The notes below the pieces were generated by a model. It saw nothing but the letters and a program-made list of their open reading frames with translations, searched no databases and was not told where the DNA came from. A stretch of 64,000 nt of DNA from a virus, in IMG/VR virus record IMGVR_UViG_3300025423_000009, positions 53,948 to 117,947 of that record; one strand, 5' to 3'. The position numbers and the translations under genes were made by a program. Numbering within the stretch: position 1 is the first letter of the stretch; every line of letters starts with the position of its first letter. Below are positions 29,435 to 44,646 of the stretch, in pieces.

Positions 29435-30355
29435 TTATGAGATCGGCACTTCATGCACCTCAAAGTCAAATTTCTCTTTCGTATAGATCTTGGCGCGCTC
29501 GATGCCGTGAGTCAGCGTGTAGTTCTTCTGGCCCTTTCTCGAGAGATCGTCGGCGATGTCGTATACGGTCGTTGAACGTTCATCCTTGGTCTTTCTGAGA
29601 CCACGGCCGATCGACTGAAGGACTCGCACCTGTGACTTGGTCGGAGAAGCAAAGACGATGTTGTGCAAATTCTTGATGTTGATTCCGGTCGAGAATGTAC
29701 CAAACGAGGCGATGATGACGGAGCCTTCCTCCTTCTCCACCAGGCCGCGGATCCGTTCACGCTCGTCGGCATCTACCTCTCCGGAGACGAAGTAGACTTT
29801 TCGCTTGGTGTCCTTCAGCTTCTTCTTGACGGCCTCGAAGAGAGGCTCTCCATGCTTCTCGACAAACTGATACAGAATCAGACTATTGCCCTTGAGATCC
29901 GCGACCAGGTTCGTGATGAAGCGATTGCGTGGCTCATATGACGTCAGAAAGTCGAGCTCGTCCTGATAATCGAGGGAATCGTGCTCCTTGCGAATTGCCT
30001 CGGGATACTTCAGCACGAGCATGTGAATCTTCAACTGAGCCAGAACATCCGCGTCGATGAGCTCATGTGTTGTCGTCACCTGATAGGTCGGACCGAAGCA
30101 TCCTTCGAGCACCAGCTTATTGACCTTGGCATCCTCACCTCCCGGAAGCGTACCGGTCGTTCCGATGCGGAACCAAGCGTTCTTGAGCCAGCTCATGATC
30201 TTGGTCAGTGAAACGGCCTTGAACAGATGTGCCTCATCGCCAAAGACACCACCGAACTGCTCGAACCACTTGGGCCCCATGGTAACGGCCGACTGCCAGG
30301 TCGTGATGATCACCGGTGGATCTACTTCTACTTTTTCAATCTTTCGAATTTTCAT
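29435..30355 (-). CDS. uvsW: UvsW helicase, C-terminal fragment
   Basis: TTWQS, GDEAH, GTTGT, FSTGINIKNLH, QSIGRGLR. Confidence 0.93.
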   Translation of the reverse strand: MKIRKIEKVEVDPPVIITTWQSAVTMGPKWFEQFGGVFGDEAHLFKAVSLTKIMSWLKNAWFRIGTTGTLPGGEDAKVNKLVLEGCFGPTYQVTTTHELIDADVLAQLKIHMLVLKYPEAIRKEHDSLDYQDELDFLTSYEPRNRFITNLVADLKGNSLILYQFVEKHGEPLFEAVKKKLKDTKRKVYFVSGEVDADERERIRGLVEKEEGSVIIASFGTFSTGINIKNLHNIVFASPTKSQVRVLQSIGRGLRKTKDERSTTVYDIADDLSRKGQKNYTLTHGIERAKIYTKEKFDFEVHEVPIS

Positions 30356-30550
30356 AGAATACTCTACCTAATTTCCAGATCGAAACATCAATTGTTTCAG
30401 GTTTCATAAGTTTTGAAATTATATCAAATCATCTTTTAACGTAAGGTCTTTCGCTTTCTTCTCACCAAAACGTGTTGATACTATATCATTCGGTGATAGT
30501 ATTCTAATTGAACCATCTTCCAAAAAAACCTTTACTTTTTCTTTTTTAGG
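30320..30550 (-). mobile_element. Degenerate split-intein remnant
   Basis: KVKVFLEDGSIRILSPNDIVSTRFGEKKAKDL..DDL resembles the Hint block-B region; MKIRKIEKVEVD resembles the first strand of IntC; AT-rich. Confidence 0.65.
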
Positions 30551-31177
30551 ATCTTTATCTTCTCCACCCATCAAAATGCTTATTGAAGAGTCAGCGTCGA
30601 AAGATGCATCTTCAGATGAATAATTTGAAAAATCATTTTGCATTTGAAGAACTAAACTTCGGGTAGGAACGATGACGATTGCCTTCTTCGAAGAACCTTT
30701 GAGATGATTCAGATACCATCGTAGAAGCTGATAGATGATCAGAGACTTACCAGAACCGGTCGGGGAAACCAGAAGGATCTTCTGAAGCTTGATCGCACGA
30801 TCTATGGCATCTTTCTGGTAATCCCTTAGCTCGAGCGGCTTATCGTCCGCCCCGGTGGCCGCATAAAGGCCTTCAGACGCTTCGGATTCAGCTTCTGAGA
30901 GGTCGGGAAGCCACAGCCCTGGTGCCAGTTCAAGTTCGTGTTTCCGTGAGTCCGCGTACTTCTGAAGGTGATGGAGCAGACCGGCCGGAAGAGTCTGATT
31001 ACGAAGATTGAACAAATGTATACGCCCATCCCATTGCCGACGCTTGAAGGCCGGAGAGAACTGATATCCGGCCGCAAAGAACGAGAAGAACTCAGATAGC
31101 TCCTGAAGGACTCCGGAATCCTCACAGGTCACGCGAAGGTGTGCCTGATCGATCGAATTGACGTGTATGATGGCCAT
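30419..31177 (-). CDS. uvsW: UvsW helicase, N-terminal fragment with an intein-like tail
   Basis: WDGRIHLF, LRDYQ, SPTGSGKS, IVPTRSLV.Q; the last 43 aa are non-helicase sequence. Confidence 0.93.
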   Translation of the reverse strand: MAIIHVNSIDQAHLRVTCEDSGVLQELSEFFSFFAAGYQFSPAFKRRQWDGRIHLFNLRNQTLPAGLLHHLQKYADSRKHELELAPGLWLPDLSEAESEASEGLYAATGADDKPLELRDYQKDAIDRAIKLQKILLVSPTGSGKSLIIYQLLRWYLNHLKGSSKKAIVIVPTRSLVLQMQNDFSNYSSEDASFDADSSISILMGGEDKDPKKEKVKVFLEDGSIRILSPNDIVSTRFGEKKAKDLTLKDDLI

Positions 31178-35765: not shown

Positions 35766-36275
35766 TTATTCCAATTTCCGCTGTTTTCTCTTTTCCCAGG
35801 CCAATCGCATTTTTGCTCTAGACTCTTCTGATCTTTTAGATCCAATATGTGCGACTCTCGTTTTCTCTATAGACTCAGGAGAAAGTTTATAACGTTGTCG
35901 AGCCATGCTCATTTTAGCTCTAGTTTCTCGTGAATGCTTTCTTCCAATTGCTTTAGCCCTAATTTTTTCTTTAGTTTTAGCAGAATGAGTATAATTCCAT
36001 CCTCGGGCTCCTGCATTATTATTATGCTGATTATAAAAATCCATACTGCCAGCAGCATCAACTGCTAATAAAATTTTAGTCTCAAGAGCAGCCATTTTTT
36101 CTTTACTGCCTGTGGCAATTATGTATCTTTCGAAATTATCAGGATTATTATAATAATCTTTCAAAAAAACTTTGCTTGAACAAATATATCCATCATTTAA
36201 TGCCCCAGTATGATACCCCACGTATAGTCTATTATCTATTTTATTCCTCCAAGAATAGACGAAAGATTGGTTCAT
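35766..36275 (-). mobile_element. Free-standing GIY-YIG homing endonuclease with NUMOD3-like repeats
   Basis: VYSWRN.....YVGYH..., Y.CSS, E...YN; HS.ETR.KMS repeats; AT-rich. Confidence 0.85.
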
Positions 36276-36277
36276 TG

Positions 36278-41012: not shown

Positions 41013-41115
41013 ATTAGTTGTTACCTTTCAGTTATTGGTTTGATAAGTTGAATGACAAGAGGATTAACTCACTTAACCGTATTTATTATATTTCACTTTT
41101 CAACTATTCATGATG

Positions 41116-41165
41116 CATAAATAGAAATGCTGGTCGCGATACGCCAATATCCACCAGCTCTACAA
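41116..41165 (+). promoter_or_regulatory. Late promoter plus hairpin element (HEG-associated), copy 1
   Basis: CATAAATA...GCTGGT-CGC-GATA..TATC-C-ACCAGC-TCTACA. Confidence 0.6.
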
Positions 41166-41184
41166 CAACCCGATTAAAGGAATT

Positions 41185-41313
41185 ATGCAGCACAATCATA
41201 TCTATCGCCCCTACAGGGATGGCCATCAGGTCGATCCTTCACGCTCTATTGCTATACGTAAAGCAAAAGCGGAATTCAAAAATGAGAATCTTTTACAATA
41301 TATTCAACTGTAG
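41185..41313 (+). pseudogene. Probable truncated homing-endonuclease remnant (42 aa)
   Basis: MQHNHIYRP... shares HIYR and the upstream element with the HEG at 42919-43680; only plus-strand ORF supported. Confidence 0.45.
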
Positions 41314-44220: not shown

Positions 44221-44646
44221 AATATATCAGTAATTAACTATAATGCGATTGACCGTCGAGTATTCGGCCGTTGCCACTTGCTCGCAATCTTATTTGAAGC
44301 CGGTATTATTGACATCACCGACGATGTGGATTCTGAATTCTTGTTCGGCCATAAATTGAGGTGCCGCCAGTTATTTCGCCAAGCCCAGCCGATAACGATT
44401 CGTGTCGCCCGCAATTTGCACCGAAATCCACACCACTAAATTCGTGCTGACTGGTGGCGTGTTTGTGCCGTTAGACTATTGTTCCCTTTAAGCATTTTTT
44501 CCATGTTACCTCCTAATACTTTTTCGAAGATTAGAGCAATGAATGGCAGCATAAATTCACGTTGGCACGGTTATTGTTGCTTTTGCTAACATCATTTCGT
44601 GCATTTTGTTTTCCCTTCTCCCTTGCTCATAAAACTTAAAGAGCTT

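Follow-up and report, generated by a model that had tools for sequence, protein, structure and literature searches.

In the window, the 64,000-nucleotide stretch of viral DNA analysed here, the uvsW gene of a freshwater T4-like phage consists of two open reading frames (ORFs) on the minus strand. The N-half (30419..31177, stop codon included) encodes 252 amino acids and the C-half (29435..30355, stop codon included) encodes 306; the features of both, and of the sequence between them, are collected in Table 1. Pfam finds UvsW_N (3.5e-18), ResIII (8e-16), and DEAD (1e-13) in the N-half and Helicase_C in the C-half, and UvsW_N, ResIII/DEAD, and Helicase_C are all present when the two ORFs are taken together, as expected of a UvsW protein. 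An AlphaFold2 model of UvsW read through the gap has a mean pLDDT of 79.6. The break lies in a surface loop flanked by the strand that ends in GG and by the one that leads to motif II; the first RecA-like domain is thereby divided over two chains. The N-half ends with 43 residues that are missing from unsplit UvsW proteins, and the C-half begins with MKIRKIEKVEVD, 12 residues more than unsplit UvsW proteins have at this place. An earlier note, made from the sequence of the window, had described uvsW as two ORFs broken in the loop before PPVIITTWQS, with TGA and TAG codons in a 63-nucleotide in-frame gap. The ORFs agree with this description; the in-frame stops across the gap are TAA at codon 253, TGA at codon 258, and TAG at codon 270.

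Table 1. Features of the split uvsW gene and of the inserted cassette (positions in the window)
Feature	Position	Strand	Description
UvsW N-half, coding	30422..31177	-	UvsW_N and helicase motifs I to Ib, tail at end; stop 30419-30421
Whole inserted cassette	30317..30661		345 bases, in place of 120 native bases (40 codons)
Foreign AT-rich extein stretch	30551..30661	-	Codons 173-209; came in with the cassette (co-conversion tract)
N-half tail	30422..30550	-	43 residues; homologous to the intein part that starts shortly ahead of block B and ends where natural split inteins are split; SPND in place of TxxH
Spacer between the ORFs	30356..30418	-	63 bases, in frame; stops TAA, TGA, TAG
HNH endonuclease remnant	30336..30419	-	Last 27 codons and stop, in another frame; overlaps N-half stop and C-half start
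C-half start	30317..30355	-	12 IntC-strand-like residues and one Pro; foreign portion of the C-half
Native UvsW C-extein	29438..30316	-	Motifs II and III and second RecA-like domain; stop 29435-29437

The same split, with homologous tails, recurs in independent assemblies (L001, L081, L082, P0003, P0006, P0007, and others), so the break in uvsW is not an assembly artefact. A contig from run X1, which may be the source sample, also crosses the uvsW junction without any difference. An assembly error, which the earlier note had named as a possible source of the broken gene, is thus not the explanation, and the split is real. Protein searches with the N-half find relatives (42-63% identity) that stop at this very position and carry a homologous tail, and three of the split relatives were read as DNA (L081, L082, and L001). 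Most other T4-like uvsW genes retrieved are in one piece of about 490-505 residues. P0001, the cluster representative of the same split N-half, differs from the window at codon 81 (30935-30937; Lys in P0001, Glu in the window).

The cassette, its empty site, and its endonuclease gene

Between about 30300 and 30700 the GC content drops from about 0.52-0.58 to 0.28-0.35. Two empty-site sisters, the viral contigs L083 and L084, were retrieved by a pattern built from the two cassette flanks. Over 11-14 kb they share 98.3-99.7% identity with the window, and their alignments to the window end exactly at 30316 and 30662, which defines the inserted block given in Table 1. The cassette is made up of 37 foreign extein codons, the tail, a stop codon, an endonuclease remnant, and the 13-codon start of the C-half. 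In place of codons 173-209, L083 and L084 have other, GC-richer sequence. L083 encodes UvsW as a single 505-residue protein. It has exactly the residues that codons 1-172 of the window encode, it differs by one residue from the second ORF of the window taken from its codon 14 to its end, and 40 native codons lie between these shared parts. Near-identical sister genomes with an uninterrupted uvsW exist, and contigs from runs X16 and X9 likewise join 30316 to 30662, skipping the 345 bases of the cassette, with 120 other bases between. An inserted block of this kind is the expected product of homing accompanied by one-sided co-conversion, and it coincides with the AT-rich tract. The earlier note had likened that tract to a homing co-conversion tract, a reading supported by the sisters with intact uvsW, which break exactly at the tract edges. 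Searches for the cassette in 50,697 phage records, with blastn and tblastn, found none.

The window and L084 also differ outside uvsW. An ORF of 169 residues at 35766-36275 (-) in the window matches the homing endonuclease family phrog_314 (8.6e-24), and 35871-36277 is missing from L084; this is a second endonuclease insertion, polymorphic between near-identical phages. The stretches 41106-41302 and 44356-44627 of the window are also missing from L084, and the sequence on either side is 99.3-99.7% identical.

In relatives an ORF lies between the halves. L081 and L082, which are syntenic relatives of the window phage, have an ORF of 279 residues between the two halves that overlaps the start of the second half and matches the homing endonuclease family phrog_655 (9e-28) as well as an HNH family. 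In the more distant L001 the same tails surround a different ORF of 249 residues, with no match in Pfam, PHROGs, or PDB sequences; it may represent an undescribed endonuclease family. This ORF (L001:1502-2251) begins with a GIY...YIG-like pattern. The gap with a whole gene between the same tails is about 830-840 bases in the relatives.

In the window, what remains of the endonuclease is collinear with the 3' end of the L081 and L082 endonuclease ORF and is in the frame of that ORF. The loss of the endonuclease that the earlier note had proposed is seen here in the form of a remnant, since only the last 27 codons of an HNH gene are left. A reading of the gap in which the two ends of the endonuclease gene, its first and its last codons, are joined was ruled out by contigs from run X9 and by re-alignment, which identify the remnant as simply the last 27 codons. 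The rest of the 117,947-base virus record has no further copy of the HNH gene. Two short contigs from run X9 diverge from the window at 30419/30420: one has the start of an L081-like ORF directly after the N-half stop, and the other has the end of an ORF that continues into the remnant. These two short contigs, on which the full allele rests, suggest that an allele with the full endonuclease coexists with the window form and that the window form is a deletion with a few bases of microhomology. No longer contig with an endonuclease-bearing sister allele was found in viral contigs or metagenome contigs. A TTAGG stretch lies inside the remnant, upstream of the ATG of the C-half, and is common to L081 and L001. 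The remnant may have been retained because it holds the bases upstream of the ATG of the second half.

Descent of the tails and loss of splicing

The ancestry of the tails shows only in the more sensitive of the profile searches. Pfam scans of each tail alone find no intein, and a profile of six tail sequences compared with PDB sequences also finds no intein, the best match being a superantigen-like protein (E 0.17). A region search with the tail recovers only the tail itself. The decisive profile (A5) is built from three sequences, those of the window, L081, and L001, and has 93 matches at E<=0.001 among 1.84 billion representative proteins. At least 52 of the 93 matches are genuine inteins, the best of them at 6e-11 and 6e-10, and a few are repeat proteins that look spurious. 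The matches are near full length in 71 cases, and 52 of these 71 have TxxH in the block-B column; most of the 52 have a block-A-like motif about 49-58 residues upstream. All ten of the intein matches that were scanned have a Pfam Intein_splicing or Hint match across the matched stretch. The tail is therefore a homologue of the part of an intein that begins shortly ahead of block B and ends at the natural split site. The earlier note had suggested a Hint ancestry for the tails and profile searches as a way to examine it; Pfam and PDB profiles are silent, but the three-sequence profile recovers genuine inteins at library-wide significance, and it is on this second search that the ancestry stands.

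Pairwise comparisons agree with the profile. The tail is collinear with the ends of genuine IntN pieces found at other sites of other uvsW genes, and 14 of 32 residues are identical between the window tail and the IntN end of P0011, the similarity ending at the split point. In contiguous intein matches the tail-like segment leads into a K-I-x-K-I-E-type strand, after which come a block F of the VYDI type and a His-Asn end with Cys or Ser next to it. The 12-residue start of the C-half in the window corresponds to this strand and ends at the point at which an intein would continue with block F, a match that is too short for statistics; L001, L081, and L082 have the same C-half start.

Two of the A5 matches are unusual in other ways. 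P0096 has Gly-Ser linkers and a His6 run between its intein parts and looks like an engineered construct in public data. P0121 is IntN-like and has Gln for the block-B His and a Cys-containing stretch upstream; on the tree it groups with catalytic inteins, so that its block-B His may have been lost independently.

The window peptides have none of the features needed for splicing. The block-B column, TxxH in inteins, reads SPND in the window tail, which begins about 8 residues before block B; the roughly 50-60 residues holding block A in the intein matches are missing. The junction of N-extein and tail reads KD-PKK and has no Cys or Ser nucleophile. Blocks F and G are missing from the C-half, in which 12 residues precede the extein and Pro-Pro follows. 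About 55 intein-derived residues are left in the window, which is too few for a Hint fold. With no block A, F, or G, no TxxH, and no nucleophile, the peptides cannot splice, and the absence of all splicing residues reported in the earlier note holds at each point: SPND stands for TxxH, there is no block A upstream, and only 12 IntC residues remain.

The window tail is not alone in this state. Among the A5 matches, 19 (including the window) have no His in block B and no block A at the expected distance, and nearly all of these lie at a protein C-terminus; most of them have x-P-N-[DEQ] in the block-B column. Besides UvsW, the dead tails are found on proteins with a DNA polymerase III finger domain, an ATP-dependent ligase domain, or a DnaB-like ATPase, and on other helicases. 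In a tree of the 71 near-full-length segments, a branch supported at 96% has 18 of the 19 dead tails on the same side, and in a tree made without the TxxH columns 16 dead tails are together with 97% support. Holding the 18 dead tails together is not rejected by the AU test (p 0.87). Because the tree has only about 45 columns, it is compatible with a single origin of the dead tails rather than proof of one.

Comparison with known split genes

The closest precedent for the split uvsW is nrdA-a/mobE/nrdA-b of Aeromonas phage Aeh1, described as 'genes in pieces' (Friedrich 2007; Crona 2011, PMC3045599). In both cases an HNH (Mob-type) homing endonuclease has broken up a gene of a T4-like phage, both fragments have AT-rich in-frame tails, and there is no splicing; in uvsW, the foreign and AT-rich nature of the tails and their frame on both fragments are known from the DNA alone. 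The Aeh1 tails are essential for activity but not for heterodimer formation, and they have been speculated to be degenerate descendants of a split intein (Crona 2011, PMC3045599). While the Aeh1 tails have no detectable sequence relatives, the window tails descend from a Hint domain and have clade members on several other enzymes. The gene that is split also differs (uvsW rather than nrdA), the endonuclease gene has been deleted in the window, and empty-site sisters exist; a role of the window tails in assembly or activity is putative.

The 'fractured genes' with the split inteins gp41-1, NrdJ-1, and IMPDH-1 (Dassa 2009, PMC2677866) are similar in that a phage DNA-metabolism gene is broken and Hint peptides are present on both ends. 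They have an endonuclease gene between the halves, as do L081 and L082, and the window has the last 27 codons of one. The split inteins of the fractured genes are complete and trans-splicing, whereas the window keeps about 55 of some 125-140 intein residues. UvsW is absent from the enzyme types listed for fractured genes (PMC2677866).

Genuine split inteins do occur in uvsW, at sites other than that of the window: after motif III in P0011 and after motif II (after its DE) in P0020. Unlike the window peptides, both have Cys1, block A, TxxH, and matches to Pfam Hint and Intein_splicing. With the site in the window, uvsW has been invaded at three or more positions. Free-standing homing endonucleases, including T4 SegE, also target uvsW, and flanking markers are co-inherited (PMC2988022); SegE adjoins uvsW without splitting it and, unlike the window cassette, brings no intein-like peptides. 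The collection of papers searched has no description of Hint-derived, splicing-dead tails on a split uvsW. What is new for the uvsW locus is that the endonuclease has been deleted while the tails stay, and that there are exact empty-site sisters.

Proposed assembly of the two halves

The explanation that is considered likely is that uvsW has been split by a cassette, that splicing-dead Hint peptides dock the two resulting chains, and that the endonuclease has been deleted. A homing-endonuclease cassette of the 'fractured gene' type invaded uvsW and delivered the foreign extein, the 43-residue tail, an HNH gene, and the 12 residues with which the second half begins; in the window the endonuclease gene was later deleted save for its last 27 codons. 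The two halves may be co-transcribed, because no minus-strand promoter-like or terminator-like site is found in the gap between them, and they would be separately translated, with the 27-codon remnant surviving as the translation start region of the second half. They would then assemble non-covalently into a working helicase in which the first RecA-like domain comes from both chains, and the half-intein peptides would dock on each other as in split inteins, making the fracture tolerable.

That the tails dock the halves as a clasp is probable from their conservation, from the role of the corresponding strands in split inteins, and from Aeh1 NrdA. In split inteins these strands carry a charge network and start the 'capture' step of association (10.1101/546465; PMC11766414). 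The window peptides were placed on a split-intein structure by alignment position rather than by computation. A complex prediction for the tail piece and the C-half start has a score of 0.31 against a mark of 0.32 and counts neither for nor against docking. By direct count the tail has a net charge of +2 and the C-half start of +1, so both are slightly basic, and simple charge complementarity as in Aeh1 or in split inteins is not evident for the window peptides.

Both halves are under purifying selection in the split lineages, between which dN/dS is 0.13-0.23 for either half; for the native C-extein compared with that of L082 it is 0.13. In the tail there are 0.80 synonymous differences per site, which is saturated, and 0.38 non-synonymous differences. 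The 13-codon start of the C-half has 0.85 synonymous and 0.18 non-synonymous differences per site, although this stretch overlaps the endonuclease ORF in the relatives. Between L081 and L082 there are 0.58 synonymous differences per site in the gene core and 0.06 in the cassette flank and tail, the latter without any amino-acid change. The low divergence of the L081 and L082 cassettes is a sign of recent lateral spread.

Three other explanations deserve attention. The tails could be inert leftovers of the cassette, persisting only since precise deletion is unlikely, and pairing of the fragments could depend on nothing more than the first RecA-like domain, whose two parts complement each other. 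Inert peptides would fit the weaker constraint on the tail (0.38 non-synonymous differences per site, compared with 0.19-0.22 in the helicase core), the moderate to low confidence of AlphaFold2 in this region (pLDDT of 63-73 for the tail strands and below 50 for residues 232-249, where the best-conserved motif of the tail lies), and the finding that the Aeh1 tails are dispensable for heterodimer formation (PMC3045599). However, the tail has kept an open frame and a conserved pattern despite saturated synonymous sites, and the residues G29, A33, D35, L36, and D40 are invariant in the aligned tails of relatives. Host proteins of five or more kinds have also kept tails of one dead clade, and the tails have outlasted the deletion of the endonuclease in the window, so that inert tails are considered unlikely.

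The second explanation, that the split uvsW of the window is a non-functional casualty of a recent invasion, tolerated as UvsW is dispensable, has very little probability. In T4, uvsW is not essential and its mutants are viable, so that a copy split only a short time ago could last for some time even if inactive. The invasion is recent, with flanks 98-99.7% identical to those of the empty-site sisters, and intact alleles coexist in the same runs. Against a casualty, both ORFs are intact, the sequence ahead of the C-half start has been kept, and the two-piece layout is under the selection described above (dN/dS 0.13-0.23) in lineages with cassettes that have diverged to saturation. Production of a single polypeptide, either by bypass or readthrough of the gap in the style of T4 gene 60 or by unconventional splicing, is hardly credible. 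The 63 bases of the gap are in frame, and the bypass in T4 gene 60 is itself tied to a mobile endonuclease cassette; yet the gap has three stop codons, and the same tails are separated in relatives by about 830-840 bases with a whole gene. By direct reading, the take-off codon for bypass would be the ATA before TAA, and there is no ATA landing codon in the gap or in the C-half start. Unconventional splicing would have to proceed with no nucleophile at either junction and with blocks A, F, and G missing.

Docking of the two chains by Hint-derived peptides remains the preferred explanation for the window, and the other dead tails raise a wider one. The chances are about even that a single splicing-dead lineage of half-inteins moves with homing endonucleases as a portable two-peptide clasp, which allows phage replication and repair genes (for UvsW, DnaE-like and ligase-like proteins, and other helicases) to be broken by the endonucleases and still function, and which outlives the endonuclease, as in the window. 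The phages described here form a natural isogenic set, with the empty site in L083 and L084, the cassette without endonuclease in the window, and a form with the endonuclease that may exist in run X9; such a set is suited to the study of homing, fitness cost, and tail function. The non-covalent intein-derived pair of 43 and 12 residues could serve as a protein-assembly tag.

The speculation of Crona et al. (2011) on a degenerate intein is supported by the window tails, which are recognisably Hint-derived, and if the proposal is true, the tails of Aeh1 NrdA would gain the evolutionary origin that they have been missing. Docking, and not splicing, would then be the repair mechanism for a whole class of fractured genes. 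Besides RNA splicing and protein splicing, selfish endonucleases would have a third route by which to neutralise the damage that they cause, namely a recycled intein docking module.
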